From Candidatus Omnitrophota bacterium (lineage in GTDB: Bacteria; Omnitrophota; Gorgyraeia; Pluralincolimonadales; Pluralincolimonadaceae), in the NCBI GenBank assembly GCA_003141835.1, contig PLNR01000011.1, forward strand, positions 107,804 to 171,803: a DNA stretch of 64,000 nucleotides, in the 5' to 3' direction. The notes beneath the pieces were generated by a model, which was given only the letters and a program-made list of their open reading frames with translations, was not told the origin of the DNA and did not search any database. Below are positions 29,482 to 46,237 of this stretch, in pieces (positions within the stretch are counted from its first letter, which is position 1; every line of letters begins with the position of its first letter). The position numbers were made by a program, and so were the translations under genes.

Positions 29482-30243
29482 TCAACTCCACCTGTGAAAA
29501 ATTATCATTGTCTCTTTTACTTCGTTGAAGCCGTTCTTAATATAGGTGTTTTGGGCGGAGACGTTCTTTGCCTGTGTCCCTACCGTGAGTTCCGTTGCCT
29601 GCAATTTTTTTGCGGCGTAGCGGAGCAAGGCCGAGCCGATCCCTTTTCCCTGAAATCTCTTTAAGACGGCTACGAAGAAAAGCCTGGAGCGCTTTCCGTC
29701 CCGGCTGACGTTGGCCAAGACCGCACCGGCTGTTTCATTGCGGAACTTGGCTATGAAGATGCGCCCGGCCTTCGAAGGCCTGAAGCATTTTATGTAATTT
29801 ATCCAGAGCAGGTCCGCTTTTTCTTTGGGGATACGGGTATCCGAATGGAACCTAGAATACCTGAAAACGCCCCCAAGCTCCTCACAGGGAAGGCCTTCGT
29901 TCTTTTTCAATTCAAGCACCTTTACGCCGGGCGCCAAGGACGGATCTTTTGCCTTCCCGCCGGCATATTTGAACGTGATCTCGGTATCTATGTAGGCGAA
30001 GCCCATAGTCTGTAAAAATGCTATCGATCCATTATCCGAATCTGCGGGGATCTTGACCGTCACGAAACTATTTTTGAGCTTACCGGCTGCCATGGCCCTT
30101 ATTTTAGCCGAAGGCACAAGTATGGAATTATCCGCGTCCAGGAGATAACAATCCCTCCCGAAGAAAACGGTATCCCATTCCAGGAACTTGAAATGATATA
30201 CGGCGCCGCCGGCTTTTAGCGTGATATCTTTAGAGGATGCCAT
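29482..30243 (-). CDS. GNAT-family acetyltransferase, candidate PseH-like N-acetyltransferase.
   Basis: FQGKGIGSALL acetyl-CoA loop. Lies immediately downstream of the PseG-like and PseI-like genes. 253 aa. Confidence 0.6.
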   Translation of the reverse strand: MASSKDITLKAGGAVYHFKFLEWDTVFFGRDCYLLDADNSILVPSAKIRAMAAGKLKNSFVTVKIPADSDNGSIAFLQTMGFAYIDTEITFKYAGGKAKDPSLAPGVKVLELKKNEGLPCEELGGVFRYSRFHSDTRIPKEKADLLWINYIKCFRPSKAGRIFIAKFRNETAGAVLANVSRDGKRSRLFFVAVLKRFQGKGIGSALLRYAAKKLQATELTVGTQAKNVSAQNTYIKNGFNEVKETMIIFHRWS

Positions 30244-31231
30244 CGATATAGTCCTTTATTTCCCTTGTCTTGAATACGGCGTTTGGCAGGCGGGTTAACG
30301 GGTCCCGTATACCTTCCAGCAACTTTTTTTCGTCGAAAGACCTGAACCCGAGGTATTTCGCCCAGCCCATTTTATCGAAGTACTCGCACCTGCCTATCTG
30401 GTGTTCGTGAATAGCGATGAGGACCGACGGCGTCCTTGTCGCGACAAGCTCGAAACTGGTAAGCCCGCCCGCGGAAACGGCTATATCGCAATTCATGAAC
30501 TCATCGAACATATTCGTTATATCCTGCTTTATCCTGTATTTAACGCCTGAATCCTTTAAGCTTCCGGCCAGCCCTTCCATGTGCCGGTATCCCCCGCCCA
30601 CGACCACATACAGCTCCAGACCTGTTTTTCCCCTGATAAGGGCATCTACCACTTTTTGGGTGAAATTATATTCATCGGCTCCGCCCATCGATACCAGCAA
30701 TACCTCCGGCTTGCTTTTATAAGACCTGTTACGGATCCTCGTGAAATCAAAATCAAGCGGCAGGACCGCGTACTGCGGCCCAAGAAGGAATTTGGTGCCG
30801 GGATATTTCTTTTGGTCAAACAGCTTATCCGTACCTACATCCCAGTTCACCACCAGTGACATGCCGTCAGGGATAATGCCGTCGAAATTGATGCAGGCCT
30901 TTACCGCGCGATTTGTGACCCCCTTGTATTCCGTCAAGGGCCTTTCCGTTATTTCAAAGAAGGCCGCGTCGATCCCCCGGGACTCGATGTAACCATTTAT
31001 CTCTTCCGTTTCCTTCCCGATCGAATGCGGCCCTATGATAGCTAGATAATTATTTATCTTGTTCCTCTTTACTATTTCGACGGACTCATCATAATCCCTG
31101 ATGATAAAGTGAGATTCCCAGCCGTCATTCTCGAAATAGCGCGACAGGTGGATAAGCGAAACGAGGTCGCCGGTGCCTATCGACTGCTTCGCGTCGGCCC
31201 TGAAAAGCACTTTTTTTGTCACAGTATGCAA
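30230..31231 (-). CDS. pseG: PseG-like UDP-sugar hydrolase (UDP-2,4-diacetamido-2,4,6-trideoxy-beta-L-altropyranose hydrolase family, MurG-like fold).
   Basis: KVLFRADAKQSIGTG near the N-terminus, LVSMGGAD, and C-terminal DIAVSAGGLTSFEL match the conserved PseG blocks. 333 aa. Confidence 0.68.
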   Translation of the reverse strand: MHTVTKKVLFRADAKQSIGTGDLVSLIHLSRYFENDGWESHFIIRDYDESVEIVKRNKINNYLAIIGPHSIGKETEEINGYIESRGIDAAFFEITERPLTEYKGVTNRAVKACINFDGIIPDGMSLVVNWDVGTDKLFDQKKYPGTKFLLGPQYAVLPLDFDFTRIRNRSYKSKPEVLLVSMGGADEYNFTQKVVDALIRGKTGLELYVVVGGGYRHMEGLAGSLKDSGVKYRIKQDITNMFDEFMNCDIAVSAGGLTSFELVATRTPSVLIAIHEHQIGRCEYFDKMGWAKYLGFRSFDEKKLLEGIRDPLTRLPNAVFKTREIKDYIDGIL

Positions 31232-32289
31232 TCCCAGGTTATCGGGTCCTCGAAAAAGATATCTTTCTTTGCGGTGACCTTATTAGCCTTGAAAAGATCC
31301 AGGTATTTAGGCTCTAACCCGCGTTTTTTCTTCCCCGGCCTTAAGATCTCTATATCGGACGGCCCTATCCTCCGGCCTGCTTTTATGTCCTTGTTGGCGA
31401 AAAGCGCCATGTAAGCGAAATCCCTGAGGTATTTTTCCTTCTCGCCGGTGGTCTTCGCGCTGCTGCCGTAGATGAGCTTATCTATCCTGCATTTTCCTGC
31501 TTTAAGGCCGGATCCGGCCTTCCGTATCGCGGCGACCATCTCTTTCAGTTCATCCGGTTCCAGCGCAAAAAAATGGTCCGGCCCTTTCATCCTTTTATCA
31601 AGGGTTATGTGCTTTTCTATCACCCTGGCACCGAGATATACCGCCTGGACCGGGGCCGCGCAGGCCTCTTTGGTATGGTCAGAGTATCCTATCTCGAGGT
31701 CCGGAAAAGCCGACCCAAGGGTCCTGATAACCCCCAAATTACATTCCCTGAGGTCGGTGGGGTAAGCTATGGAGCAATGCAGCAGGGTGAGTTTATCGTG
31801 ATAACGCTTTACGGTGCTTACCGCATCCTCTACCTCCCCGAGCGTCGCCCCGCCGGTCGAGAGGAAGATCCTGAACCGCTTTTTTGCGCAATATTCAATG
31901 AACGGTATGTTGGTAACGGCATAAGAAGGGATCTTTATCGACCTTAACCCTCCGGCGATCAGCATATCCAGGCATGATCTGTCTGAAGCCGAACACAGGA
32001 AATCGATCTTCTTTTTCTTGCAATAGGCCGTCAACTTGCCTATCCAGGCGCGCGGCATCTCAAAACGGGCCGAGGCCTCATATATATCGTAGGAATACTT
32101 CTTGTCGTTATCGGTCCAGTCGAGCCTCCCTGCGCTTTTCGGATAGAGATATTTTGCCTTGAACAACTGGAACTTTGCCGCGTCGCATCCGGCCTCAGCA
32201 GCCGAATCGATAAGCCTGAAACAATTTTCGAGCAGGCCATTATGGTTTATCCCGATCTCGGCTATTATATATACTTTATTTTTCATCAA
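31219..32289 (-). CDS. pseI: Nonulosonic acid synthase (NeuB/PseI/LegI family), most likely pseudaminic acid synthase.
   Basis: YIIAEIGINHNGLLE…AKFQ TIM-barrel N-terminus and a C-terminal SAF domain. 356 aa. Confidence 0.82.
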   Translation of the reverse strand: MMKNKVYIIAEIGINHNGLLENCFRLIDSAAEAGCDAAKFQLFKAKYLYPKSAGRLDWTDNDKKYSYDIYEASARFEMPRAWIGKLTAYCKKKKIDFLCSASDRSCLDMLIAGGLRSIKIPSYAVTNIPFIEYCAKKRFRIFLSTGGATLGEVEDAVSTVKRYHDKLTLLHCSIAYPTDLRECNLGVIRTLGSAFPDLEIGYSDHTKEACAAPVQAVYLGARVIEKHITLDKRMKGPDHFFALEPDELKEMVAAIRKAGSGLKAGKCRIDKLIYGSSAKTTGEKEKYLRDFAYMALFANKDIKAGRRIGPSDIEILRPGKKKRGLEPKYLDLFKANKVTAKKDIFFEDPITWDCIL

Positions 32290-34171
32290 AATTTTTCCTG
32301 AACCAAAGCTCGAGGTTTATCAGCTGCCACAAGAACATCTGGTGGTCCTTGCCGCCTGCCAAATGCTCGTCGTATATCGCGTTCAATCTATCGACCTTAA
32401 AAATACCCCTGCTTTTTACGGATGGTGAATTGATCAGGTCGTATAACTCCCGCCTGTTCGTGGTCCTGAACCATTCGTTGGCGGGTGCTATGAAACCCGC
32501 CTTATCCTTCCTTGTCCTTACTTTCTCCGGTAATACGCCCTTCATGGACTCGCGCAACAGCCATTTCCCCAGGCCGCGGCGTATCTTGAACTTGTTGGGC
32601 AGCGAAAAACAGAACTCCGCAAGCCGGTAATCCAAAAACGGGGACCTCGACTCTATGGACTGGGACATCGTGTTCCTGTCCTCAGGCCTCAATGAGGCGG
32701 GTATCGTCTCGAACATCATCTCCGAATACAGCCGTTTTGATAAAAGGCTGCTGTAAGGGTTAGGCCAATGTATATCCCTCTTATGCCTGGATACTATATC
32801 CGCGTTAAAACATTCCGAGTAATCCGGGAACCTGCTCATTTCGCTGGTCTTGTTATCCACCAGCCGGCCGATATATTCTTTATACTTGTCTATCTCTGAA
32901 ATATCCCTGCCGTGGTTCTCCTTCCAAGTTTTCAACTCTTCCTGCAAAGATACGGCCTCGCCCTTCTGTTCCAGGTCATAAAAATTATAATGATAATGGT
33001 CCCAGTAGCCGGCAAGGAGCTCATCGCCGCCGTGGCCGTTTAACACGACCGGCGTCCTTTCGAGCTTCACTTTCTTGGCGATCAGGTAAAGGCTGTACCA
33101 GGTGACCGTGCATACCGGTTCGTCATGGTAACCCAACATCTCGTTTATGGTGCCAAAGAGATCCGCCGGGTCAGGCCTGATATAATGAAAATCGGCGTTC
33201 GTTTCTTTTATGACCGAATCGATGTACTCGCTCTCATCGTAAACGCCTTTTTTCTCGCCTGTGATCCCGGAGAACGCCACGATCGGTTTTTTCAGGATCT
33301 TGTAAGCGATACTGGTGATGGAAGTCGAATCCAACCCTCCGCTGAGCATGCATCCGACAGGGACATCGCTTCTCAGCCTTAACTTGACTGAATCGACCAG
33401 CAGGGCCTTAAACCTGTCTATCGCTTCGCCGTCGGATATCCCGCTCCTGTCCTCGGACGGGCGCAGCTGCCAATAATGATCCGTCCTGCATCCGAGGTTT
33501 TCATCGATCTCCATAAATGAGCTTTTGGGCACTTGGGAGATGCCGCTGAAATACGAATCCGCATCAACGTCTACATATCTGTAATTTGCCGCGATATACC
33601 TGTATATCTTGTCGTAATTCGGCTCTTTGACGGCCTTCGGGTGCTTCAAGATCCCTTTTATCTCAGAAGCGAATATAAGTTCGTTCCCGTTCTTTTGGTA
33701 ATAAAGCGGTTTTTTACCGAACCTGTCCCTCGACAATATTACTTTTTTACGTTTCTTGTCAAAGATCGCCAAAGCCCACATCCCGTTAAACCGCTCAAAA
33801 CACTCGGTCCCCCACTTCCCGTAGGCCTTAAGCACGACTTCCGTATCGCTCGTAGAGACGAACCGGCATCCGGCGCGGCCCAGTTCTTCCTTAAGCTCAA
33901 GATAATTATAGACCTCGCCGTTAAAGGTGATCGCTGCCCCGGTCTCGGGATCGACCATCGGCTGGCGGCCGGTTTCGGTAAGGTCGATGATCTTAAGCCT
34001 CCTGTGGCCGAATGCGACAAAACCGCCGTTCTTGCCGCTAAAGTCCGAAAAGATACCGCACCCGCTGCCGTCAGGGCCGCGGTGCGACTGCGCATCGGTC
34101 ATATTCTTGATCGTTGATGCCAGGTCGTAATCCGGCTTACGTATGCCGATAACGCCAGCTATGCCGCACAT
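32276..34171 (-). CDS. Asparagine synthase (glutamine-hydrolysing) family amidotransferase. Paralogue 2 of 3.
   Basis: MCGIAG N-terminus and SGGLDST PP-loop. 631 aa. Clearly paralogous to the gene at 128..2029. Confidence 0.88.
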   Translation of the reverse strand: MCGIAGVIGIRKPDYDLASTIKNMTDAQSHRGPDGSGCGIFSDFSGKNGGFVAFGHRRLKIIDLTETGRQPMVDPETGAAITFNGEVYNYLELKEELGRAGCRFVSTSDTEVVLKAYGKWGTECFERFNGMWALAIFDKKRKKVILSRDRFGKKPLYYQKNGNELIFASEIKGILKHPKAVKEPNYDKIYRYIAANYRYVDVDADSYFSGISQVPKSSFMEIDENLGCRTDHYWQLRPSEDRSGISDGEAIDRFKALLVDSVKLRLRSDVPVGCMLSGGLDSTSITSIAYKILKKPIVAFSGITGEKKGVYDESEYIDSVIKETNADFHYIRPDPADLFGTINEMLGYHDEPVCTVTWYSLYLIAKKVKLERTPVVLNGHGGDELLAGYWDHYHYNFYDLEQKGEAVSLQEELKTWKENHGRDISEIDKYKEYIGRLVDNKTSEMSRFPDYSECFNADIVSRHKRDIHWPNPYSSLLSKRLYSEMMFETIPASLRPEDRNTMSQSIESRSPFLDYRLAEFCFSLPNKFKIRRGLGKWLLRESMKGVLPEKVRTRKDKAGFIAPANEWFRTTNRRELYDLINSPSVKSRGIFKVDRLNAIYDEHLAGGKDHQMFLWQLINLELWFRKNFDEK

Positions 34172-34516
34172 CTATCGTTCTTTCCACTCGTCAAGCCAGC
34201 AGATTATCCTGTTATCCTGTCCCGTCTTCAGGTATTTTCTGAACTCCTTCATCTTTTCCTTTTCGACGGCATGGACATATAACTGGTGCCTCTCATTGAC
34301 GACGAGGGCAACCTTGAAACCCTCCTTTTTGAGCCTGCTGTTCAGGGAAGGGCCCAGGTAGAAACCCCAATCTTTGGCGGCAAAATCGCATTCCTTCCCG
34401 CTTTTCGTGACGAAGGATACCATCTCGCCGTCGTTGAGATATATCTTCCCGAGATCCTTTACTTTATGGCCCTTCACCTCAAAGACCCTCGGCGTTCTCT
34501 TGAATTTGGTTTTCAT
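34172..34516 (-). CDS. Small hypothetical protein (~114 aa).
   Basis: The ORF is wedged with zero spacing between an AsnB paralogue and the PseA-like gene. The internal ATG at 34516 gives an ATGA overlap. No recognisable motif. Confidence 0.38.
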   Translation of the reverse strand: MKTKFKRTPRVFEVKGHKVKDLGKIYLNDGEMVSFVTKSGKECDFAAKDWGFYLGPSLNSRLKKEGFKVALVVNERHQLYVHAVEKEKMKEFRKYLKTGQDNRIICWLDEWKER

Positions 34517-35631
34517 TTCCAATCCCGTCCTTTTACCAGAAAATCCTTTATCATCCACCTGCCGTTATCTTTCGACCATATCCTGCGGTTACGGAAATGT
34601 TCTTCGATCTCATGGAAACGGGCCAGGGAGATCCCCAAGAACGCGCACAGCCTGCGGATATCCCCATGCGGGACCTGGGGCCCTGTTTTCGCGATAACGC
34701 CGATTGCCCTTTCCCTCGTCATCCTGCCGTTGCGTATCTCGACCGAGAGGTTATCGAACAGCCTCGTAAAGCCGAACTTAAGCCATTTAAAATAATGGTG
34801 GACCGAGATGAAGTCGCAATCGATATCCGCATAGTCGTAATACCCTAATTTCGGTGCGCCGGGCCTGTTCTTGAACCCGTTCTCACGCGCTACCCTGTAA
34901 GTCTCCTGCGGGTCCCAGGGGATATAAAACCCTAAAAATATTGACTCGATCTTCTTTTCGCTGAATTCTTTGCCGCTTGGCAAAAAATACGGCTCAAGGC
35001 CTTTTCTTGTAAGGTCCCTGCCGACCCAATCCGCCGCCGAAGTCCCCTGCAATATCCCGTGGCGGTTGAACCAGCCCATGTCCAGCCTGTCGCGGTCCCT
35101 GTCCTTCTCAGGCCCGCCGTACTCCATGTGCGGGCTTTCGCCCCACACGACCAGCGGAATATTTAAACGGACCGCTATTTTTAAAGGGATGCTGAATAGC
35201 GCCATATGCATCGGGACTGCGGTGCTTCCCGTCTTTACAAGCGCCTTGTACATAAAGCGCCTTTCTATTTCCGGGTCGATGGAATAATCTATATGGTCGA
35301 CTCCCAGCCGGATGATGTTATCAAGGTTCTCCTGCCCCAATTCCGTCCTCGCCGGGGTCCTCCAGGTTACGGCCAGGATACGCAGCCCGTATTCCAGGCA
35401 TTTAACCACCTGCCAGGTGCTGTCCTTGCCTCCGCTTACCGGGACTATGCAATCATAACCGCCGGCCCTCGATCTCGCCTTACGGATGATCGCGGACAAT
35501 TCTTTCTTTCTTTTTGCCCAATCGATCGTCGCCTTATATTCATGCCCACGGCATGCCGAACAAACGCCATCCGGGCCGATCGTCAAACCCGGCCTTGTAT
35601 CCGGCAAGACACACTTAGCGCAATATCTCAT
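34513..35631 (-). CDS. N-acetyl sugar amidotransferase (PP-loop ATP-pyrophosphatase, WbuX/LfnA/PseA family), predicted to form an acetamidino sugar.
   Basis: N-terminal Zn-ribbon (CAKC…CSAC) followed by the PP-loop VPVSGGKDST. 372 aa. Confidence 0.7.
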   Translation of the reverse strand: MRYCAKCVLPDTRPGLTIGPDGVCSACRGHEYKATIDWAKRKKELSAIIRKARSRAGGYDCIVPVSGGKDSTWQVVKCLEYGLRILAVTWRTPARTELGQENLDNIIRLGVDHIDYSIDPEIERRFMYKALVKTGSTAVPMHMALFSIPLKIAVRLNIPLVVWGESPHMEYGGPEKDRDRDRLDMGWFNRHGILQGTSAADWVGRDLTRKGLEPYFLPSGKEFSEKKIESIFLGFYIPWDPQETYRVARENGFKNRPGAPKLGYYDYADIDCDFISVHHYFKWLKFGFTRLFDNLSVEIRNGRMTRERAIGVIAKTGPQVPHGDIRRLCAFLGISLARFHEIEEHFRNRRIWSKDNGRWMIKDFLVKGRDWK

Positions 35632-36261
35632 CTAAGTTCTTTCCTTGATCTTGACGGCCGGCACTCCCGCCAAAACTGAATTTTTTCCATACCTGCCCTC
35701 CCTTACAAGCGCCTTTGCGCCGACAACGCACCCATCCTCAAGGACCGCACCTTTCATGATCGCCGCGTTAGCCGCTATCCAGACATCGTTGCCGATGGAT
35801 ATCTTACCGTAAGTGTGTTTCTGGTCCTTTATCAGGGCGCCTTTACCGAAACCGTGCTGCGACGACTGTATGAAGATCATCCCTGAAATAAGGCAATCCT
35901 CTCCGATCGTGACATCCGTGCCGCAGTTAAAAAGGCAATATGGGCCGATCGAGGTGCGCTTGCCTATTTTTAAAATGGCGTCATTAGCCGAAACGAACCT
36001 GCAATCGTTATCTATCGCGACCCCGTCTTCGATGACTATCCTGCCGTTCTCCCTGTTCCTTATGTCTATGTCCCCGAAGATAGAGACGTTATCGCCTATC
36101 GAGATGTTGCGCGGATCACCTCTTAATTTCAATTTAGGGATGCCCTCTATGTAAAAATTCTTACCGACACGGATGCCATAGATCTTCAGTATGCTCTTGA
36201 TCACCCAGCTGTGGAAATAGCAGTATTTCTTGTTAGTTACCAGCGCGAGAAAATCAGGCAT
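35632..36261 (-). CDS. Hexapeptide-repeat (LbH) acyl/acetyltransferase.
   Basis: Multiple [LIV]Gxx hexapeptide turns (IGDNVSIFGDIDI…VIEDGVAIDNDC…). 209 aa. Confidence 0.7.
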   Translation of the reverse strand: MPDFLALVTNKKYCYFHSWVIKSILKIYGIRVGKNFYIEGIPKLKLRGDPRNISIGDNVSIFGDIDIRNRENGRIVIEDGVAIDNDCRFVSANDAILKIGKRTSIGPYCLFNCGTDVTIGEDCLISGMIFIQSSQHGFGKGALIKDQKHTYGKISIGNDVWIAANAAIMKGAVLEDGCVVGAKALVREGRYGKNSVLAGVPAVKIKERT

Positions 36262-37930
36262 GTTTGACCCCGTTCACTTTGAAGACTTTTTTCCAGTCCT
36301 CGAATACCATTGTTTTATAAGCGACCCTGTCATATTTACCCTGCCTTCCCCACTCGAACCACCTGTTCACCGGCGCGGAAAAACCCCTCTTATCCGTCCG
36401 CTCGACTATCTCTTTCGGTATGAATTTCCTGGCGACCTCTTTCAAGGCCCATTTGGTGATCCCGTTCTTTATCTTGTATTTTGACGGCATGGAAAAACCG
36501 AACTGGACGAGCCGGTAATCCAGGTACGGCGACCGGTTCTCTATGCTAAAAGCCATGCAAAGCCTGTCCGACATCTGCAGGAGGACCTGCATCGTGGAAT
36601 AGAAATCGTTAAGCCCCATGGCGTGGACTATGTCGTTGCTCATCTTGTCGAAGTAAAACCCGACCGATTCGCGGAGATACCTGTTTACGGATTCGTCATA
36701 CTGGTTCTCGCACCTGTTTATCAGCTTCGAGTATCTCTCTATGGGGCTTCCGTAATATTTGTCGACCAGGTATGAGTACTGTTTCATCGCCTCCAGGTGG
36801 TGTATCTGTTCGTCATGGTGGAGCAGGTGGTACCTGTGGTATCCCGCGAACGTCTCGTCCGCCCCTTCGCCGGAAAGGATCACCTTGAGGTCCTTCCTGG
36901 CCCTTTCCAGCAGCATCCATAACGAGAAGCTCGTCCAGGTGCACGGCGTATCGAGGTGATAGGCTATCTTTTCCCTGGTACGCAGAAAATCATCCCTTGT
37001 AGGCCTTATCACTATCAGTTTTTTCTTGATCTTTTTCGCGACGAGCTGCGCGTAGTCGAGTTCGTTGAAATCCTCATAGTCGTAATGGGCATGATAGATG
37101 AAATCCGGTTTCGCGATGCAGGCGATCAAAGCGCTGTCTACGCCGCCGCTGATAAAACACCCGTAGCTGTGGACGCAATTCTTGGTCCTCAGCATGATCG
37201 CGTCCTCTACCAATTCACCCAGCGTATTCAATACTTTCTTCTCGTTGTCTTTTACCTCGATGAGGTTATCCCATATCTTCCAGTATCCGTGTTTCGTAAA
37301 ATTATTTCCCTTCACCTTAAGGTATTCGCCGGGCTCGAGAGAATAAATGTCCTTAAACAGCGTCTCCGAAGAGACCGTGAATTCGTAAGCCTTATAGGAC
37401 AGGGCCGCGTCGTTAAACCTGGGTTTGACCACCCGGAGAAGGCATTTCATTTCGCTTGCAAACGCGAAGAAATCGCTACCATAAGCGTAATAAACCGGCT
37501 TTTCCCCGGTCTTGTCCCTTACTATATATGTGGTCTTCTTTCTCGCGTCAAAAAGCGCGAAAGCGTACATGCCGTTGTAATCGTTAAACGACTTTTCCCC
37601 GGTCTCGATGTAGTTACAAAGGATCGTCTCGGCCTCGGATGAGGTCTTGAACTCGTACTTGCCGGCCAGCCCCTTTCTTATTGAATCGTGGTTATAGACT
37701 TCACCGTTGTAGACTATCGCGTGGCTTGATGCCGCGTCTTCATACGGTATCCGGTGCCTGGAAGTGTCTATGATGCTCAATCTCGTCATGCCGATGGTGA
37801 CGTCGCCGTACGTCTCCACCCCGCGCTGGTCCGGGCCCCTGTAGCACATGTCATCGAGCATCTTCGACACGACCGACGAGGAGTTATATTTCTTTTTGTT
37901 GGAAGTTGTAAAACCCGCTATGCCGCACAT
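36254..37930 (-). CDS. Asparagine synthase (glutamine-hydrolysing) family amidotransferase. Paralogue 3 of 3.
   Basis: MCGIAG N-terminus and a GGVDSAL PP-loop variant. 558 aa. Confidence 0.82.
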   Translation of the reverse strand: MCGIAGFTTSNKKKYNSSSVVSKMLDDMCYRGPDQRGVETYGDVTIGMTRLSIIDTSRHRIPYEDAASSHAIVYNGEVYNHDSIRKGLAGKYEFKTSSEAETILCNYIETGEKSFNDYNGMYAFALFDARKKTTYIVRDKTGEKPVYYAYGSDFFAFASEMKCLLRVVKPRFNDAALSYKAYEFTVSSETLFKDIYSLEPGEYLKVKGNNFTKHGYWKIWDNLIEVKDNEKKVLNTLGELVEDAIMLRTKNCVHSYGCFISGGVDSALIACIAKPDFIYHAHYDYEDFNELDYAQLVAKKIKKKLIVIRPTRDDFLRTREKIAYHLDTPCTWTSFSLWMLLERARKDLKVILSGEGADETFAGYHRYHLLHHDEQIHHLEAMKQYSYLVDKYYGSPIERYSKLINRCENQYDESVNRYLRESVGFYFDKMSNDIVHAMGLNDFYSTMQVLLQMSDRLCMAFSIENRSPYLDYRLVQFGFSMPSKYKIKNGITKWALKEVARKFIPKEIVERTDKRGFSAPVNRWFEWGRQGKYDRVAYKTMVFEDWKKVFKVNGVKHA

Positions 37931-39250
37931 CTATTTTATATTTCCCATCTTTCCGTCGCCAACCAGGTGATATACCGTCTTGGGGGAGAATTTAAAATCC
38001 TTGAACAAGGCGACGTTATCGATCACAAGCGAGGCGTCGCGTATCCCGAGCGAATCAATATCCTTTTGGGTGAAATATTTATACCTGTTATGATCGGTCA
38101 TCAGGAGCACGGCCTGGCTCTTCAGCCCCTGCTTAAGCAGGTCGACATGGCGCGAGAACGGCAGGAGCTTCCGGATCGTCTTTTCATCGTAAAGCGGGTC
38201 GTCTATATAGACCTCGATCCCGAGTTTGTTCAGGTATTCCGCGATGGCAACGGACGGCGAAAGGTCTATGCTCTTCTGGTTGCCGCGCACCGTAAGCCCC
38301 ATGATCGTCACGGACTTGCAGCCTGCTTTCTTTATTACCTCTGCGTAATTGAAGATCAGGCTCATGTTGGATTCCTGGGATTCCTTGATCAGCGACAGGA
38401 ACTGGGGCTTTTTGCTTCCTTCGGAAATGTTCTCTACGGAGATCGGGATCTTGCTGCCTCCTGCCCCGATACACAGGTGCGACTCGTTAAGCTCGACGTC
38501 ATTGAGGAGATACTTGACCATGCCCCTGACATTCGTATCAGGATAAGCGAAGGAAAGCTGGTTGATGAAGACTGTCGTCATATATTGGAATGTATTCTTG
38601 GCGTTTTCGTAAAGTTCGGCCTCTTTTATCGTCCCGAGGGCCTTGAATTTGATGCCCAGCAGATTATAAAAGAACTGCGCCTCCGCCAATGATTTTTCGC
38701 TATCCGCCGCTAATATGCGTTTTTCGTTGCGGGCGAAATAATCCTCGATAGTCCAATCGCTGCGGAAAGCCGACGCGAAACCGCAGCCGCAGCCGTTCTG
38801 TTTTAACGGCGCGGTAAAATACCTGTCTATCACTCCGGGCCTGCCGGCGGATTGGAATATCACGAGGGCCCCTTTCAGGCGGCGCTTGTTCTTTATGAAT
38901 ATGCCGGCGAGTTCCTTAAGCGCGTTGTTGCCTTCCCTGTCGATCGCGGGGAACGCTATTACATGCACGCGGGAATCGAACATGCGGGCAGGGTCTTTTA
39001 TCATATTTATCCTGGAAATATCCAGGACCGGGATATCGCCGTTCACAGACCAGCTATATACCTGTTCCCTGTCCAGGTATTCGCCTTTCTTCAGTTTCTT
39101 TTCGAAATTCGTGCCGGTATAATCGAAGACGTCGGCCTTAAAACCCCTCGACTGCAGCTTTATGAGTTTCGTATAGCCGAGATACCCGGCTCCCCAAACG
39201 GAAACCAGTTTTGTCTTAAGCAATTCCTCTTTGAAGTTCTTCATGGTCAC
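37931..39250 (-). CDS. Divergent nucleotide-sugar dehydrogenase-family protein (UDP-glucose/GDP-mannose dehydrogenase-like).
   Basis: N-terminal VWGAGYLG Rossmann motif. The C-terminal block GLTVRGNQKSIDLSPSVAIAEYLNKLGIEVYIDDP resembles the UDPG_MGDP_dh C-terminal domain. 439 aa. Confidence 0.5.
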   Translation of the reverse strand: MTMKNFKEELLKTKLVSVWGAGYLGYTKLIKLQSRGFKADVFDYTGTNFEKKLKKGEYLDREQVYSWSVNGDIPVLDISRINMIKDPARMFDSRVHVIAFPAIDREGNNALKELAGIFIKNKRRLKGALVIFQSAGRPGVIDRYFTAPLKQNGCGCGFASAFRSDWTIEDYFARNEKRILAADSEKSLAEAQFFYNLLGIKFKALGTIKEAELYENAKNTFQYMTTVFINQLSFAYPDTNVRGMVKYLLNDVELNESHLCIGAGGSKIPISVENISEGSKKPQFLSLIKESQESNMSLIFNYAEVIKKAGCKSVTIMGLTVRGNQKSIDLSPSVAIAEYLNKLGIEVYIDDPLYDEKTIRKLLPFSRHVDLLKQGLKSQAVLLMTDHNRYKYFTQKDIDSLGIRDASLVIDNVALFKDFKFSPKTVYHLVGDGKMGNIK

Positions 39251-40392
39251 CCCCTTAATAGTTCTTTCAAGTGCCCTGTGACATATCCCGCGTCTTTTAC
39301 CGTCATCGAGGAGAACATCGGGATCGATAATATCTCGTTAAAGATCTTGTTGGCTACGGGAAAATCTCCCGCGCAGAACCTCTTTTTGTAATAGCTGTGC
39401 ATATGGAGAGGTATGTAATGGACGCTGGTCCCTATGTTCCTTTTCTTGAGCTCGATTATCAGGCTGTCCCTCTCCTGCCCCGAAGAGCCGGTCTTTATCA
39501 TGAACAAATGGTAATTGTGGAAGTGCTCGTCCGAATCTTTTGTAAAACCTGCCAAACCGTCCAATTCCTTACGGTAGAACGCCGCGAGCTTCCTGCGTTT
39601 CGCGAGCATCCGGTCGAGTTTCTTTAGCTGCACCAGCCCTATGGCCGCGTGGAGGCTGTCGAGGTTATATTTATATCCCTTCTCTTCGATGTCGTAGAAC
39701 CAGTTGCCGGTCTTGCCGTATCGTTTAAATGCCTGCTTATTAATGCCGAAATAACTTTTTTTCCGTATGCTCTCTATGAGATCCTTATTCCTCGATACCA
39801 CGAGGCCGCCCTCGCCCATGGCCAGGTTCTTTGTAGCGTAAAAACTGAAAACGGCGACGTCCGAGAAATTGCCGATCTTTTTACCGAAGTAGCGCGTCCC
39901 GATGGCATGGGCGGCGTCTTCGATCACCTTCAGGCCGTGCCTTTGCGCCAATTTATTTATCCCGTCTATATCGCAGGGGTATCCCGCTATATGGACCGGG
40001 ATTATCGCCTTGGTCCTTGAAGTGACGAGCCGCGAGGCTTTCTCGAGATCAATGTTCAGCGAATCTTCCTCCACGTCGCAAAGCACAAGTTTCGCGCCCA
40101 CCCAATCGACCACCTGCGCGGTAGCGGCAAAAGTCCATGTCGGGACGATCACCTCGTCGCCGGGCCCGATACCCAGCGCCTCAAGCGAAAGATGGAGGCC
40201 TGCGGTGCAGGAATTTAACCCAACGGCATAGAGCTGTTCCGGGCCTTTCAGGTAATCGACGATTTTGTCTTCAAATTCGGTGACTTTCGGGCCGGTCGTC
40301 CACCAGCCTGACCGCAAGACCGCCGCGGCGGCCTTCACCTCCTCATCCGAAACTTCAGGCCTCGAAAACGGAAGGAAATCTTTCCTTATCAT
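39247..40392 (-). CDS. DegT/DnrJ/EryC1/StrS-family PLP-dependent sugar aminotransferase (ArnB/PseC-like).
   Basis: FLPFSRPEVSDEEVKAAAAVLRSGWWTTGP N-terminus and a conserved lysine region. 381 aa. Confidence 0.85.
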   Translation of the reverse strand: MIRKDFLPFSRPEVSDEEVKAAAAVLRSGWWTTGPKVTEFEDKIVDYLKGPEQLYAVGLNSCTAGLHLSLEALGIGPGDEVIVPTWTFAATAQVVDWVGAKLVLCDVEEDSLNIDLEKASRLVTSRTKAIIPVHIAGYPCDIDGINKLAQRHGLKVIEDAAHAIGTRYFGKKIGNFSDVAVFSFYATKNLAMGEGGLVVSRNKDLIESIRKKSYFGINKQAFKRYGKTGNWFYDIEEKGYKYNLDSLHAAIGLVQLKKLDRMLAKRRKLAAFYRKELDGLAGFTKDSDEHFHNYHLFMIKTGSSGQERDSLIIELKKRNIGTSVHYIPLHMHSYYKKRFCAGDFPVANKIFNEILSIPMFSSMTVKDAGYVTGHLKELLRG

Positions 40393-41243
40393 TTTTCAAC
40401 CACCTCCCCTGTTCCCTGTTGCCCGACTTCGGGATACCAGCTGTCGCATTTCGCGCATAGCGAGTCCGTAAAAACGAGTTTTTCGTGTTCCATCCTCAAC
40501 CGGGCGTATTTTTCATTATGCCAGATCTCTCTTATAGTCTGCGAATTGACGTCGCCCATCGGCTCGCCGGCCCAATCATGGTTGCACCTGCCGGTCTTTC
40601 CGTCATAATAGACAAGCAGCTCGTAGTTAGGCATCACGCAGGGCTTTCTTTCTTTGCGCGGCTTGCGTATCGCGCCGAAGACGCCATTTATCGAGTGCTC
40701 CTCGTATACCCGGATCCTGTCGACCTTTCCGTCCCATATCTTCTTAAAAAGCTCGACGTTATTTTGAGGCGTCCCGGCCGTCTTTACCATCGATACCTGC
40801 GTCCTGACCTTCCCTTTATTGAATTTCAGGAAATCCAGGATGTTGCCTTCCACGGCGGAATATACGGCAGGCTTCCTGGTTTTATCGAAGACCGAAGGGA
40901 CATCTATACTGAAAGAGATGAAAGTAAGGCCCTTTACGATCGCTTCAAATTTTTCCGGATTGAGGAGCGTGGCGTTCGTCGCCATCTGAACTTCCTTGAA
41001 TTTCCCCGGGATATACCCCATCAGGCTGTTGAAGGCCGGATGAAGCAGGCTCTCTCCTCTCCTGTGCAGGACCAGGATGGTATCGGGAAAAGGGCTTATC
41101 TCATCTATGATCTTCCTGAAAAGTTTTTCGCTTATGAACCCGCTCGGGTTATCCAAATAACTACGCGGGCAATAGGTGCAGCGCAGGTTGCAGGAATTGG
41201 AAAGCTCGATCTCTACCCTTTTAGGAAAATCAGGAGTCAGCAT
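40389..41243 (-). CDS. Radical SAM protein (non-B12), possibly with a C-terminal Cys-rich auxiliary (twitch/SPASM-like) region.
   Basis: ELSNSCNLRCTYCP CxxxCxxC motif, and CAKCDSW near the C-terminus. 284 aa. Confidence 0.75.
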   Translation of the reverse strand: MLTPDFPKRVEIELSNSCNLRCTYCPRSYLDNPSGFISEKLFRKIIDEISPFPDTILVLHRRGESLLHPAFNSLMGYIPGKFKEVQMATNATLLNPEKFEAIVKGLTFISFSIDVPSVFDKTRKPAVYSAVEGNILDFLKFNKGKVRTQVSMVKTAGTPQNNVELFKKIWDGKVDRIRVYEEHSINGVFGAIRKPRKERKPCVMPNYELLVYYDGKTGRCNHDWAGEPMGDVNSQTIREIWHNEKYARLRMEHEKLVFTDSLCAKCDSWYPEVGQQGTGEVVEK

Positions 41244-41926
41244 TTTTTTTCTTTCAACAGCAGGTCAAATATATCCCTCGACTTGAAATCATAAACCGGG
41301 CCCAGGGCCGCGGCTATTTTATTGCATAACTTAATGTCTTCGGGATTATCGACTGTCAGCGAAATATCCGATATCTCCAACGGGCGCATCTTTGCGTCAA
41401 CAAATTTCGTTTTGAATTTTCCATTGTTATTCTTCAGGAACAGGGTGACATGCTCAGACTCGGCTTCGGATGCCCCTTCGGAAGACCTCCGCAGCGCTGA
41501 CAAGGTAATGACTTCCGAGTCCAGCCCGGCGATACAAGTGTTTTTATCCGGCGCGACGTAATCCAGCCCTTCATCAGCCTGTATATTGAACATTTTGTCT
41601 ATGAGCCCGGTGTCTACGAACGGGGAATCGCCGCATACCCGGCAAACGACGCCCGCTTTAAAAAACTCGGCGGCTTTTATATACCTGTCCAGGACGTTAT
41701 CAAGCGACCCGCGGAAGGCCTTGATCCCGCGCTTTACGCAATAAGCATAAAGCCCGTCATCACTGCCGTCGTCCGAGGTGATAACGGCGATGATCTCCGC
41801 TTCTTTCGAGGCCGAAGACCTTTTGTAGACATATTCGACCAAAGGTACGCCATCCAGGACCGGAGCGAGCATCTTTCCCGGGAATCTTTTTGAAGAAGAA
41901 CGCGCCTGGATCAACAAGGCCTTCAT
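41237..41926 (-). CDS. CMP-nonulosonic-acid synthetase / acylneuraminate cytidylyltransferase family (PseF/NeuA/SpsF-like).
   Basis: MKALLIQARSSSKRFPGK (cytidylyltransferase P-loop). 229 aa. Confidence 0.7.
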   Translation of the reverse strand: MKALLIQARSSSKRFPGKMLAPVLDGVPLVEYVYKRSSASKEAEIIAVITSDDGSDDGLYAYCVKRGIKAFRGSLDNVLDRYIKAAEFFKAGVVCRVCGDSPFVDTGLIDKMFNIQADEGLDYVAPDKNTCIAGLDSEVITLSALRRSSEGASEAESEHVTLFLKNNNGKFKTKFVDAKMRPLEISDISLTVDNPEDIKLCNKIAAALGPVYDFKSRDIFDLLLKEKKC

Positions 41927-42025: not shown

Positions 42026-42535
42026 CTAAAGCCTCTCCACCACGTCGTTGTCCACTTCCGCGGCCAACGACCTGCCGAGAAGGTCCACCGAGATGACCAG
42101 CGTGCCCTTTTTGTCGTTGAATTTCTCGAATATGCCGATAGCTCCCCTGAGCGGCCCGTCTACAACGACGATCCTCTCGCCGGCGTTCAGGTAAGGGTGC
42201 GGCGACGGATCTATCCCCGATTCTACGATCATTCTTACGCTCTCTATCTGCTCTACGGGAATGGCCAGGGGGGCCGTTTTTGTGCCCAGGATATTGACCA
42301 CGCCTTCGGTCTTTTTGACCTCAAGCCAATCCTGGGTGGTAGCGGCACACTCGACAAAAAGATAGCCCGGGAAAAGCGGCCTTGCCACTTTTATCTTCCT
42401 GTCCTTCCTCCTGCTCCATTTGAGGACGGTCGGATAGAAGGTCTTGATCGATCTCTTGTTCAGGAGGTAGCTTACCTTGAACTCGTAGTTCGACCGCGTC
42501 CTTACCGCATACCATTTGTGGGCAAGCGCTATCAT
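42026..42535 (-). CDS. NusG/RfaH-family transcription antitermination paralogue (UpxY/LoaP-like), locus-specific.
   Basis: NGN domain (KWYAVRTRSNYEFKV…PLFPGYLFV) plus a KOW motif (GERIVVVDGPLRGAIGIF). 169 aa. Located at the head of the glycan operon rather than in a secE-nusG-rplK context. Confidence 0.8.
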   Translation of the reverse strand: MIALAHKWYAVRTRSNYEFKVSYLLNKRSIKTFYPTVLKWSRRKDRKIKVARPLFPGYLFVECAATTQDWLEVKKTEGVVNILGTKTAPLAIPVEQIESVRMIVESGIDPSPHPYLNAGERIVVVDGPLRGAIGIFEKFNDKKGTLVISVDLLGRSLAAEVDNDVVERL

Positions 42536-42538
42536 ATT

Positions 42539-43150
42539 TTATAGTCCGTGCACGGGCATTTTAGCCAGTTCCGCGTCATCGTTTATCCTCTTCAGGATCT
42601 TATCCTTATAACGCATGGATGTGATTATTATCGCGTCCGGTTTGAGGGCTTTGATCGTCTCCGGGCCGCCTATTGTGAAATTGAACTTCTTTGTGCCCTG
42701 CTTTTCCTTATCATCGTCGATTATCCCCAAAACCTCTATACCGGCCTCATGAGATATCACGAACGCAACTTCCATGACATCTCCGGCACCGTAGAATACG
42801 GCGCGCTTAACGCCTTGTCTTGAGATGGAATCGAGCTTTTCGGCGAGGTTTTTTTTGAGGTCTATGTAATAGTGGACTGTATATTCGAGGAAATGGTAGG
42901 TAAGCCTTGTCTTCTCGCTGAAACCTTCGGGAGTGAGGAAATACGATATGCGCTTGTGGTTTATGCCCTTGATCTTTATATAGCCCTTATTCGCCATCTT
43001 TTTAAGGCAGGCGTTGGTCACGCCCAGAGCCACGCCAAGCCGCTCCGAAAGTTTCCTCTGGGACGCGCCGGAATCCCTGGAGATCTCCTCCAGCAACTGA
43101 AGATTTCGCAAGTCTTCTGTTGGTTTACGGAAGCTGTTATCAGTGGGCAT
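42539..43150 (-). CDS. Rex-like transcriptional regulator: N-terminal winged helix fused to a C-terminal CoA-binding-type Rossmann domain.
   Basis: wHTH region (…SQRKLSERLGVALGVTNACLKKMANKGYIKI…) followed by VFYGAGDVMEVAF…GIEVLGIIDDDKEKQGTKK…AIIITS, which parallels the Rex GxGxxG…F-D-x-D-P-x-K dinucleotide-binding region. 203 aa. Confidence 0.6.
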   Translation of the reverse strand: MPTDNSFRKPTEDLRNLQLLEEISRDSGASQRKLSERLGVALGVTNACLKKMANKGYIKIKGINHKRISYFLTPEGFSEKTRLTYHFLEYTVHYYIDLKKNLAEKLDSISRQGVKRAVFYGAGDVMEVAFVISHEAGIEVLGIIDDDKEKQGTKKFNFTIGGPETIKALKPDAIIITSMRYKDKILKRINDDAELAKMPVHGL

Positions 43151-43182: not shown

Positions 43183-43211
43183 ATTTTACGTTATAACCCC
43201 TGTCCTGTCAA
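43183..43211 (-). promoter_or_regulatory. Sigma70-type promoter, TTGACA-17 nt-TAAAAT, about 32 nt upstream of the regulator ATG. Candidate promoter for the regulator, nusG paralogue and glycan operon.
   Basis: Minus-strand -35 (plus coordinates 43206-43211) and -10 (43183-43188) hexamers with 17-nt spacing, read from the sequence. Confidence 0.42.
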
Positions 43212-45287: not shown

Positions 45288-45288
45288 T

Positions 45289-46233: not shown

Positions 46234-46237
46234 GAGA

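Follow-up and report, generated by a model that had tools for sequence, protein, structure and literature searches.

How might a nonulosonic acid (NulO) be made by a locus that lacks the usual first enzyme of the pathway? The question is raised by a gene module in the window, the whole 64,000-nucleotide stretch of Candidatus Omnitrophota DNA analysed here, for which a pseudaminic-acid-type product and the absence of a canonical PseB had been predicted.

A compact operon for a nine-carbon sugar

Pfam and NCBIfam profiles placed the 12 ORFs at 29482-41926 in the families named by the original prediction, with intact catalytic motifs. All are co-directional on the minus strand, with junctions that overlap or leave gaps of 0-7 nt, and they form a real, tightly packed operon for a nine-carbon surface sugar that resembles sialic acid. 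The upper boundary at 41926 was retained, while three gene limits required minor correction (39244 for the dehydrogenase-like gene, 32286 for the NeuB-like gene and 34516 for the small ORF). A cytidylyltransferase start at 41926 is better than the publicly annotated one at 41872 (211 aa), because the later start removes a conserved ARxxSxRFPGK motif that is aligned in homologues.

Directly upstream lies a gene for a UpxY/RfaH-family NusG-like antiterminator (42026..42535, minus strand; NF033644, 109 bits against a cut-off of 100; Pfam NusG), accompanied by one for a MarR-type EPS-associated regulator (42539..43150, minus strand; HTH_24, TIGR04176-like). Judged from sequence, the operon probably starts at a promoter-like site upstream of the regulator gene (43183..43211, minus strand; TTGACA-17-TAAAAT, 11/12 consensus match), the region's total count of such sites being not above that in shuffles. 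On the other side, a LIC12162-family protein (26290..28071, minus strand; PF27859, partial match to TIGR04331), with homologues also found 3′ of the cassette in loci L005 and L006, is a candidate NulO transferase. The segment is best explained as the core, biosynthetic part of a long operon for a surface glycan.

The cassette recurs in several phyla

The order of genes (cytidylyltransferase, radical SAM, aminotransferase, UGDH-like, AsnB, an optional block of LbH, WbuX, small ORF and AsnB, then NeuB-like, PseG-like and acyltransferase) recurs in Nitrospirota, Desulfobacter, Campylobacterota (Campylobacterales, Sulfurimonas, Helicobacteraceae) and Gammaproteobacteria. The cassette is undescribed, common to uncultured anaerobes of several phyla, and differs from the textbook pseudaminic-acid pathway in that a radical SAM enzyme, a divergent dehydrogenase-like (DH-like) protein and an amidotransferase stand in place of the usual first enzyme. 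By comparison of the loci, the DH-like protein, the radical SAM enzyme and AsnB paralogue 3 (AsnB3) are conserved members of its core. The radical SAM and AsnB genes, previously treated as peripheral, thus move to the centre, and the suggestion that the divergent dehydrogenase takes part in a variant route gains strong support.

The backbone enzymes most resemble those of the Sps pathway

The NeuB-family NulO synthase (31219-32286; Pfam NeuB, 247 bits) scored higher with the NCBIfam model NeuB_NnaB (282 bits, cut-off 400) than with PseI (215 bits, cut-off 340), against the expectation for a pseudaminic-acid enzyme. Its match in the PDB to SpsE (1VLI; 275 bits, 41.7% identity over the full length) exceeded that to C. 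jejuni PseI (8H2C; 125 bits, 36.2%), the margin in identity being only modest. The DegT aminotransferase (39247-40392; Pfam, 412 bits) was nearly tied between the ArnB and PseC models (358 and 355 bits, each under its cut-off), and in the PDB it matched ArnB (1MDO, 290 bits) ahead of H. pylori PseC (2FN6, 136 bits).

The candidate UDP-sugar hydrolase, a PseG/SpsG-like GT-B protein (30230-31231), reached 103 bits with TIGR03590 (cut-off 153.6) and just 21 with MurG. C. jejuni PseG was not detected with it in the PDB, where its family profile gave a weak match to the C-domain of MurG 3S2U and nothing else. For the cytidylyltransferase (41237-41926; CTP_transf_3, 82 bits), a predicted CMP-NulO synthetase, the best PDB match was 6OEW. 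The last gene encodes a two-domain, WecD-like GNAT (29482-30243), predicted to N-acetylate a nucleotide-linked 4-amino sugar; a formyltransferase-like gene replaces it in L006 and L007.

These structures are the templates listed for SpsE (1VLI), SpsC (ArnB 1MDO), SpsF (6OEW) and SpsG (MurG 3S2U) of B. subtilis (PMC7439481, Table S1). Since the Pse models also score under their cut-offs, the closest characterised pathway is the Sps legionaminic-acid route, a family-level likeness from which stereochemistry (Pse, Leg or other) is not readable. The Sps system (SpsM, SpsC, SpsD, SpsG, SpsE, SpsF; PMC7439481) shares with the cassette an ArnB-like DegT aminotransferase, a GNAT, a PseG/MurG-like GT-B hydrolase, an SpsE-type synthase, a 6OEW-like cytidylyltransferase, UDP-linked intermediates (predicted here) and the lack of a dehydratase gene within the operon. 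What sets the cassette apart is the presence of WbuX, a small protein, between one and three AsnB paralogues, a UGDH-like protein without the catalytic Cys and a twitch radical SAM enzyme; it belongs not to a spore crust but to the Wzx/UpxY polysaccharide locus of a Gram-negative-type uncultured anaerobe.

A radical SAM enzyme as a proposed substitute for a linked dehydratase

As predicted, a canonical PseB is absent: neither the window nor about 75 kb of its contig encodes a PseB-type dehydratase, TIGR03589 reached at most 62 bits on the window (cut-off 408), and neither there nor in the related loci does any reading frame contain a TGGTGSFG-like motif. Twelve related loci, all large sugar-nucleotide loci, likewise carry no SDR dehydratase gene (Polysacc_synt_2/PseB-type). 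The proposal that another SDR opens the pathway fared poorly, as the SDRs of the window are RmlB, RmlD and TviC-like or UXS-like, none being PseB-like.

The twitch radical SAM protein with a SPASM domain (40389-41243; 284 aa) carries a CX3CX2C motif at residues 18-25. Its sole significant sequence match in the PDB was BtrN (E=6.6e-10), with which all four auxiliary-cluster cysteines align. The AF2 model (pLDDT 89.6) also found BtrN as its best Foldseek match (4M7T; E=4.9e-13, TM 0.74), with about 16% of residues identical when the structures are aligned. In butirosin synthesis BtrN converts an alcohol to a ketone, which a DegT aminotransferase (BtrS) then aminates. A DegT aminotransferase gene also immediately adjoins here, overlapping the radical SAM gene by 4 nt, and the two are neighbours wherever the fetched DNA holds both; unlike BtrN, however, which acts on an aminocyclitol, the enzyme here would take a nucleotide sugar.

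From these comparisons we favour, with a probability of roughly 0.45, an Sps-like route to a CMP-activated, acetamidino-bearing, N-acylated 5,7-diamino-type NulO in which the radical SAM enzyme, a putative sugar alcohol-to-ketone dehydrogenase translationally coupled to the aminotransferase, would supply the keto intermediate instead of a PseB/PglF/LegB SDR dehydratase. All substrates, the sequence of steps and the product are inferred. UDP-4-keto-HexNAc would be aminated by the ArnB/SpsC-like aminotransferase and the new amine acylated by the WecD-like GNAT; the PseG/SpsG-like enzyme would remove UDP, the SpsE-like synthase condense the free sugar with PEP, and the SpsF-like cytidylyltransferase activate the product. 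The Cys-less UGDH-like NAD protein and AsnB3 would act as a second conserved unit in a further, obligatory tailoring step, and the accessory block (LbH, WbuX, small protein, AsnB2) may turn an N-acetyl into an acetamidino group and add an acetyl group. To our knowledge, the known 5,7-diamino NulOs are all 9-deoxy; a BtrN-like dehydrogenase would leave the C6 oxygen and give a product unlike any of them, which lowers the prior of the route.

It is possible, though we think it doubtful, that an Sps/Leg-type pathway is instead fed by an unlinked canonical dehydratase, with the radical SAM, DH-like and AsnB3 proteins as tailoring enzymes (e.g. for epimerisation, redox chemistry or amidation of N-acyl or carboxyl groups) and a decorated legionaminic- or epi-legionaminic-type 9-deoxy sugar as product. 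Twitch radical SAM enzymes that act on sugars also include epimerases, dehydratases and decarboxylases, and the Foldseek neighbours of the model include the sugar-modifying DesII and BlsE and the epimerase EpeE. The top structural relatives shared with SpsC, SpsE, SpsF and SpsG would equally fit this alternative. B. subtilis provides a precedent in a pathway with UDP-linked intermediates, its spsM being encoded apart from the operon (PMC7439481), and such a gene may lie elsewhere than in the window, contig and related loci searched. Against this, no SpsM-like or other such dehydratase gene is present in about 75 kb of contig or in the 12 loci, the radical SAM gene occurs paired with the aminotransferase gene, and the radical SAM enzyme matches BtrN best by sequence as well as by fold.

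The DH-like protein and AsnB3 form a second unit

The DH-like gene (37931-39244) encodes a divergent NDP-sugar dehydrogenase of the UGDH superfamily (TIGR03026, 87 bits against a cut-off of 190), only the UDP-binding domain of which reaches Pfam. Its homology to the NDP-sugar dehydrogenase family is full-length but weak. Like the UDP-sugar 6-dehydrogenases Ugd, TviB/WbpO and Cap5O, which are paired with uronamide-forming, AsnB-like amidotransferases of the WbpS type, it has a Rossmann motif, a UDP-binding domain and an AsnB homologue encoded directly after it. Unlike in those enzymes, the catalytic Cys is replaced by Lys, Arg or Gln in 38/38 family representatives aligned, and the AEMxK Lys and the catalytic Asp are also lost throughout; the NAD-binding motif is kept and a WGxGYLGYT motif is conserved. 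The subfamily is rare, with only 50 representatives at E<=1e-30 among 1.84 billion proteins (50% clustering). Relatives at 28-31% identity to the protein of the window keep the context of radical SAM, aminotransferase, DH-like and AsnB genes.

AsnB3 (36254-37930), a glutamine amidotransferase, is better conserved than any other cassette protein (identity of 65-70% in the main loci, 47-54% in the distant L016, L018 and L019), and its gene directly follows the DH-like gene in every locus examined. This holds even where the DH-like protein is fused to the cytidylyltransferase, as in P0297, and neither a radical SAM nor an aminotransferase gene is present. L016, the one variant locus without that pair, keeps the cytidylyltransferase, DH-like, AsnB3, NeuB-like and PseG-like genes but stops ~1.5 kb past the last of these, so that the missing pair could lie farther on. 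The simplest logic for the unit would be oxidation of the terminal carbon followed by amidation; this is not secure, because the DH-like protein lacks the three residues (Cys, Lys, Asp) that UGDH employs.

Carried further, the same logic gives an improbable alternative in which C6 of UDP-HexNAc would be oxidised, either by the DH-like protein or by its TviB-like neighbour, and then converted to the amide by AsnB3. The 4-amino group would come from the radical SAM enzyme and aminotransferase, and hydrolysis and PEP condensation would yield a NulO with a C9 carboxamide. This would give each core enzyme a role and account for the missing 4,6-dehydratase, and the invariable DH-like/AsnB3 pairing fits it. 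A UGDH with an AsnB-like enzyme makes hexuronamides in other glycan loci. Tannerella ManNAcCONH2 provides such a context (PMC6120980). In L010, L014 and the window, a TviB-like UDP-GlcNAc 6-dehydrogenase gene is found a short way upstream; L011 has an upstream WbpO/TviB-like gene, recognised by similarity to the protein of the window. The lost catalytic residues argue against this uronamide scheme, as does the resemblance of the synthase and hydrolase to enzymes for 6-deoxy substrates, and we know of no reported NulO with a C9 carboxamide. If it were true, the L016 variant would make a Neu5Ac-like sugar with that group.

The amidotransferase block and the pseudaminic-acid label

The predicted PseA/WbuX-family amidotransferase (34513-35631) is genuine, scoring 325 bits with TIGR03573 (cut-off 203) and showing an SGGKDS PP-loop and an N-terminal CxxC...CxxC motif; it is predicted to form acetamidino groups. 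E. coli O145 WbuX and P. aeruginosa LfnA and WbpG are PP-loop members of the same family. Here, however, HisH/HisF-like WbuY and WbuZ partners, sought across about 75 kb of contig, were not found, and a conserved 114-aa protein (34172-34516), for which no fold relative was recognisable, adjoins WbuX together with the accessory AsnB paralogue 2 (32276-34171). On the other side of WbuX lies the gene for a WbbJ/WcaF-like left-handed beta-helix (LbH) acetyltransferase (35632-36261), which is found in most related loci.

The WbuX family acts on several sugars, and the target might be another sugar of the same polymer, for instance a 2,3-diacetamido-uronic acid, the kind of sugar modified by WbpG in P. 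aeruginosa. The window contains GFO_IDH_MocA, LbH and WecB genes (WbpB/WbpD/WecB-like, 12350-15007) and a UDP-HexNAc dehydrogenase gene (46238-47548) that would suit such a role. We nevertheless consider this rather unlikely: the block sits inside the NulO cassette in most loci, at least eight of which have flanks without Wbp-type genes, and this embedding makes the NulO its likeliest target.

Of the original prediction of a pseudaminic-acid-type module making CMP-Pse5Ac7Am, the NulO module is supported and the specific label is not. Campylobacter and Helicobacter PseBCHGIF with PseA share its logic (amination, acetylation, UDP hydrolysis, PEP condensation, CTP activation) and the use of a WbuX/PseA-family enzyme for an acetamidino group, whereas here PseB is absent, PseC, PseH, PseG and PseI models stay under their equivalog cut-offs and PseF has no match. 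A canonical pathway (PseC, PseH, PseG, PseI and PseF with PseA, PseB being encoded elsewhere or replaced by another SDR of the locus, and the AsnB paralogues adding further amidation) is therefore very improbable, even with TIGR03590 (PseG) as the best hydrolase model and PseC nearly tied for the aminotransferase, given that the synthase prefers NeuB and SpsE, the aminotransferase prefers ArnB in the PDB, and the hydrolase is not detectably similar there to C. jejuni PseG. A further AsnB paralogue is encoded in the window at 128-2029.

Organization of the cassette

Twelve open reading frames, all on the minus strand and with junctions that either overlap or span at most 7 nt, occupy positions 29482-41926. 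In transcription order they encode a CTP_transf_3 cytidylyltransferase (CT), a radical SAM/SPASM protein of 284 residues, a DegT aminotransferase (AT), a protein reached in Pfam only by the UDP-binding domain of the UDP-glucose/GDP-mannose dehydrogenase family (DH-like), an AsnB paralogue (AsnB3, 36254-37930), a hexapeptide acetyltransferase of the left-handed beta-helix type (LbH), a WbuX protein, a small ORF (114 residues), a second AsnB copy (AsnB2, 32276-34171), a NeuB-family synthase, a PseG-like protein and a GNAT. A third copy of AsnB lies at 128-2029. Pfam and NCBIfam upheld the families assigned in the original prediction almost one for one. Inspection of the translations found the catalytic motifs intact, including the CX3CX2C of the radical SAM protein, the context of the PLP lysine in the aminotransferase, and the SDH and EKH metal ligands of the synthase.

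The WbuX protein has no Pfam match; it scores 325 bits against TIGR03573 (cut-off 203) and retains the PP-loop motif VSGGKDS, confirming the predicted amidotransferase of the WbuX/PseA/LfnA family. The HisH-like WbuY and HisF-like WbuZ partners of the three-component WbuXYZ system were absent from ~75 kb of contig, where the precomputed Pfam matches include neither His_biosynth nor a class-I GATase. For the cytidylyltransferase, the start codon proposed at 41926 restores the conserved ARxxSxRFPGK motif, and the resulting 229-residue ORF aligns with its homologues from residue 1. The public gene call (211 residues, start 41872) begins 18 codons late and loses this conserved N-terminal nucleotide-binding motif.

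The backbone enzymes resemble the Sps pathway

The module had been described as being of the pseudaminic acid (Pse) type. TIGR03590 (PseG) was indeed the best model for the hydrolase (103 bits, compared with 21 bits for MurG), but every Pse cut-off was missed: PseC reached 354.6 of 423.5 bits on the aminotransferase, PseH 20 of 93, PseG 103 of 153.6 and PseI 214.7 of 340, while NCBIfam returned no match to PseF. Together with the lack of PseB, this sets the module apart from a canonical PseBCHGIF pathway. A sialic acid NeuB in a NeuC context had also been considered; the synthase does score higher with NeuB_NnaB (282 bits, cut-off 400) than with PseI (215 bits), yet no NeuC accompanies it. The sole Epimerase_2 protein is a non-hydrolysing WecB (322 bits; NeuC model 59 bits, cut-off 236), and no hydrolysing 2-epimerase of the NeuC/LegG type was found. 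With LegB at no more than 191 of 475 bits and LegC at 221 of 420, the module also differs from the GDP-linked legionaminic acid (Leg) pathway of C. jejuni, as it does from the NeuABC route to sialic acid.

Comparison with known structures pointed elsewhere. The top PDB match of the synthase was B. subtilis SpsE (1VLI; 275 bits, 41.7% identity), in an end-to-end alignment that includes a linker insertion absent from PseI, whereas C. jejuni PseI (36.2% identity) and N. meningitidis NeuB scored 125 and 120 bits, respectively. The aminotransferase was closest to ArnB (1MDO, 290 bits; H. pylori PseC, 136 bits), and the cytidylyltransferase to a Leptospira protein (6OEW). Searches of the PDB with the PseG-like sequence, its family profile or its N-domain alone did not recover C. 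jejuni PseG at E≤10, and the sole match of the profile, a weak one, was to the C-domain of MurG 3S2U. With no such match to PseG, we give no weight to the idea that an invariant Asp22 of the PseG-like family replaces the PseG catalytic histidine.

The templates found here for the aminotransferase, synthase, cytidylyltransferase and PseG-like protein are those listed for SpsC, SpsE, SpsF and SpsG of B. subtilis (PMC7439481, Table S1). The Sps proteins constitute a UDP-linked legionaminic acid pathway that includes a PseG-like hydrolase and whose 4,6-dehydratase, SpsM, is encoded elsewhere (Dubois et al., PMC7439481). The cassette thus shares an SpsE-type synthase with B. subtilis, while its likeness to SpsC, SpsF, SpsG and SpsD is one of common top structural relatives (1MDO, 6OEW, 3S2U and a GNAT) rather than of directly aligned sequences. 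Because the top templates coincide in this way, the backbone resembles the Sps route more closely than PseBCHGIF, although stereochemistry is not readable from sequence; a Pse product cannot be concluded from a PseG-like gene.

No dehydratase is linked to the cassette

The original prediction had noted the lack of PseB, and this held: among the SDRs of the window and its downstream flank the best score against TIGR03589 was 62 bits (cut-off 408), and a motif scan of six frames found no TGGTGSFG-type motif. A retaining UDP-GlcNAc 4,6-dehydratase of the SpsM/PglF type was likewise absent from ~75 kb of the contig, and none of the related cassette loci contains a Polysacc_synt_2/PseB-type gene. 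The flanking SDRs of two such loci (L010 and L011) were considered as hidden dehydratases and rejected, NCBIfam identifying them as GDP-mannose dehydratase and GDP-fucose synthase.

The radical SAM enzyme is related to BtrN

BtrN was the sole significant PDB sequence match of the radical SAM enzyme (E=6.6e-10). The alignment spans the CX3CX2C motif and places Cys201, Cys219, Cys262 and Cys265 on the four auxiliary-cluster cysteines of BtrN, so that the protein combines the sequence features of a BtrN-type twitch enzyme: the CX3CX2C motif, a four-cysteine C-terminal auxiliary cluster and a compact size (~250-290 residues). Its AlphaFold model (pLDDT 89.6) gave as top Foldseek match BtrN with SAM and substrate (4M7T; E=4.9e-13, TM 0.74), followed by SuiB, SkfB, DesII, anSME, BlsE, EpeE and SpeY. 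In butirosin biosynthesis BtrN oxidises an alcohol to a ketone that is the substrate of a DegT aminotransferase; here, the radical SAM gene shares 4 nt with the adjacent DegT gene. We predict that the enzyme is a secondary-alcohol dehydrogenase of the BtrN type. Literature searches joining nonulosonic acid with radical SAM found nothing, and those on BtrN with UDP-GlcNAc nothing relevant.

A dehydrogenase-like protein lacking the catalytic cysteine is paired with AsnB

The DH-like protein shows full-length but weak homology to NDP-sugar dehydrogenases (TIGR03026, 87 bits; cut-off 190). It shares with UDP-glucose and GDP-mannose dehydrogenases the GxGxxG fold, with an invariant dinucleotide-binding motif (WGxGYLGYT), and the UDP-binding domain (PF03720, 42 bits; cut-off 30), but not the catalytic residues: across the 38 family representatives aligned, the cysteine of GGxCxxKD is replaced by K, R or Q in every one and the lysine of AEMxK is not kept. 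The family is small, with 50 representatives at E≤1e-30 among 1.84 billion proteins. One relative (P0297, encoded at 3614-5629 of locus L016) is a natural fusion of 671 residues joining an SpsF-like cytidylyltransferase to a cysteine-less DH-like protein, a Rosetta-stone link suggesting that the DH-like protein could act on a CMP-sugar. The 90%-identity cluster of the window's DH-like protein has as its representative a 44-residue fragment named 'heat shock protein beta', evidently an artefact of clustering or annotation that is best disregarded.

Both AsnB proteins of the module carry an N-terminal MCGIAG motif (Cys2 glutaminase) and an SGGVDS or SGGLDS synthetase motif, and score 378 and 418 bits against TIGR01536 (cut-off 267); AsnB2 and AsnB3 are thus predicted glutamine-hydrolysing amidotransferases.

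The cassette is conserved in several phyla

Nitrospirota, Campylobacterota, Desulfobacter, Omnitrophota and Spirochaetes have many homologues of the synthase at ~60% identity. Synteny was assessed from three synthase-homologue contexts, from seven loci that the DH-like protein retrieved and by local BLAST mapping; the genome scan with the DH-like alignment used strict derived patterns, and its mere seven loci speak to synteny, not prevalence. The conserved order is CT, radical SAM, AT, DH-like and AsnB3, followed by a block of LbH, WbuX, the small ORF and sometimes AsnB2, and then by the NeuB-like synthase, the PseG-like protein and either a GNAT or a formyltransferase, behind which there is often a LIC12162-like protein and a flippase. 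Hosts include Desulfobacter, two Nitrospirota, Campylobacterales, Helicobacteraceae, two Sulfurimonas, a Campylobacterota and a Gammaproteobacterium, and DH-like proteins only 28-31% identical to that of the window occur in the same context of (CT), radical SAM, AT, DH-like and AsnB. A variant at L016/L017 runs from the CT/DH-like fusion through AsnB3, LbH, two other genes and an ORF of no known function to the NeuB-like and PseG-like genes, with neither radical SAM nor AT gene in the DNA fetched.

Across these loci the radical SAM gene is paired with the AT gene, and the DH-like gene with AsnB3. The cassette resolves into a core (CT, DH-like, AsnB3, NeuB-like and PseG-like), a radical SAM/AT pair that is either present or absent as a whole, an accessory block (LbH, WbuX, small ORF and AsnB2) and a variable N-acyltransferase. 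The extra families carry generic names only, and no literature joining nonulosonic acid with Omnitrophota was found.

A possible radical entry to nonulosonic acid biosynthesis

Nonulosonic acids (sialic, legionaminic and pseudaminic acid) are key surface determinants. To our knowledge, every characterised route to a 5,7-diamino nonulosonic acid opens with an NAD-dependent SDR 4,6-dehydratase, and we know of no characterised nonulosonic acid pathway to which three or four of the conserved cassette components belong. A cassette that is found in several phyla without a linked SDR dehydratase, and that has a BtrN-like radical SAM enzyme coupled to the AT and a cysteine-less UGDH homologue coupled to AsnB, points either to a radical, anaerobe-adapted entry to this class of sugars or to a new sugar.

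The gene families, their intact motifs, the cassette order, the lack of a linked dehydratase and the two gene pairings are observations, and the reading that we favour, with a probability of a little under one half (roughly 0.45), is a nonulosonic acid route with a radical SAM entry and an Sps-like backbone. It would comprise eight steps. The BtrN-like enzyme would generate a UDP-4-keto-HexNAc, which the ArnB/SpsC-like enzyme would aminate; the WecD-like GNAT (in some loci the formyltransferase) would acylate the new amine, and the PseG/SpsG-like enzyme would take off UDP. The SpsE-like synthase would then join the free sugar to PEP and the SpsF-like enzyme activate the product with CTP. WbuX and its neighbours would convert an N-acetyl to an acetamidino group, and the DH-like/AsnB3 pair may carry out one more obligatory step, for which oxidation and amidation of the terminal carbon would be the simplest choice. 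In effect, a radical SAM/AT pair would take the place of the SDR entry enzyme; this exchange and the cysteine-less UGDH/AsnB pair are both directly testable. The cassette also gives a biochemical context to three families to which no function has been assigned: the ~285-residue twitch radical SAM enzyme, the DH-like protein and the 114-residue protein.

A more far-reaching form of this proposal is a nonulosonic acid route not described before, in which C6 of the precursor (C9 of the product) keeps its oxygen because the opening enzyme is a radical SAM dehydrogenase and not an SDR 4,6-dehydratase. C6 would either stay a hydroxyl or become a carboxamide through the DH-like/AsnB pair, and the product would be an acetamidino-decorated 5,7-diamino-3,5,7-trideoxy-nonulosonate or nonulosaric acid 9-amide, found widely on the cell surface of anaerobes not yet in culture (Omnitrophota, Nitrospirota, Campylobacterota and Desulfobacterota). 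We regard this fuller form as rather unlikely.

The strongest competitor to the radical entry is an unlinked dehydratase of the PglF/SpsM type that feeds the pathway, the extra enzymes being tailoring steps. B. subtilis, with its distant spsM, provides a precedent, and we hold this to be a tenable, if distinctly second, explanation; were it correct, the finding would shrink to a decorated operon of the legionaminic acid type. Alternatively, a uronamide route could lead to a nonulosonic acid with a C9 carboxamide. It accounts for every core gene and for the L016 variant, but would have to do so with a DH-like protein that has no catalytic cysteine, and we consider it improbable. Whether the substrate of WbuX is instead a different sugar, e.g. 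a diacetamido-uronic acid of the Wbp type, is an independent question; its position inside the cassette in many genomes makes this equally doubtful. The canonical Pse5Ac7Am pathway of the original prediction, for which the PseG model speaks and the missed Pse cut-offs do not, appears very unlikely. A split 4,6-dehydratase, in which the radical SAM enzyme oxidises C4 and the DH-like protein reduces C6, was ranked below these readings because it leaves AsnB3 with no role and because the DH-like protein of L016 occurs without a radical SAM gene. A decarboxylative ArnA/ArnB-like route to an eight-carbon acid has no specific support, since SpsC is equally ArnB-like.

The surrounding glycan locus

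The window is the reverse complement of part of a 222-kb metagenome contig (ENA ERZ27254250, k141_150837), and its DnaJ clusters at 90% identity or more with proteins from Candidatus Omnitrophota MAGs. The glycan locus around the module extends over at least 75 kb. Immediately upstream are a promoter-like site, a MarR-EPS regulator and an UpxY-type antiterminator, and further upstream RmlABCD, Ugd, a UDP-HexNAc dehydrogenase, a TviC-like epimerase, a second DegT and a UXS-like SDR. The last four lie at 43240-47548, just upstream of the regulator genes. The SDR among them is a 309-residue UXS/ArnA-C-like protein and the dehydrogenase a UDP-HexNAc 6-dehydrogenase, and the set resembles a pathway to a sugar derived from UDP-HexNAcA or of the 4-amino-pentose type. 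In loci L010 and L014, too, a TviB-like dehydrogenase sits just upstream of the cassette, and a WbpO/TviB-like gene is upstream in L011. A 755-residue ORF (51967-54234) with no recorded Pfam match sits between a ROK-family gene and Ugd, where the glycan locus ends on its upstream side.

Downstream are B12-radical SAM enzymes, methyltransferases, glycosyltransferases, a LIC12162-family protein, flippases and WbpB/WbpD/WecB-like genes. Three genes encode B12-binding radical SAM proteins (18877-20370, 23262-24746 and 28068-29474), the last directly after the GNAT and not conserved in the other loci. With at least six SAM methyltransferases in the glycan locus (e.g. 5733-6725, 9081-9782, 16128-16973 and 21631-23246), these genes suggest a polymer heavily methylated on carbon and oxygen. 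In L005 and L006 the cassette is likewise followed by a relative of the LIC12162-family protein (26290-28071; 27-33% identity), a candidate for the glycosyltransferase that uses the CMP-activated sugar. No paper on the function of LIC12162 was found. At 12350-15007, a WbpB-like GFO/IDH/MocA oxidoreductase, a WbpD-like LbH N-acetyltransferase and the non-hydrolysing WecB epimerase are consistent with a 2,3-diacetamido-2,3-dideoxy-uronic acid pathway within the same locus.

A second sugar-amination set belongs to the same locus and lies on the same contig just past position 1 of the window (13934-20955 of L015). It consists, in order, of a DegT aminotransferase (PseC model, 352 bits) with a 317-residue radical SAM/SPASM protein directly behind it, another AsnB, an ArnA-like formyltransferase fused to a GNAT region, a 347-residue radical SAM/SPASM protein with a weak match to the BlsE model, and finally WbqC and an RmlB-like dehydratase. 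In this organism the pairing of a DegT aminotransferase with a radical SAM enzyme seems to be recurrent.
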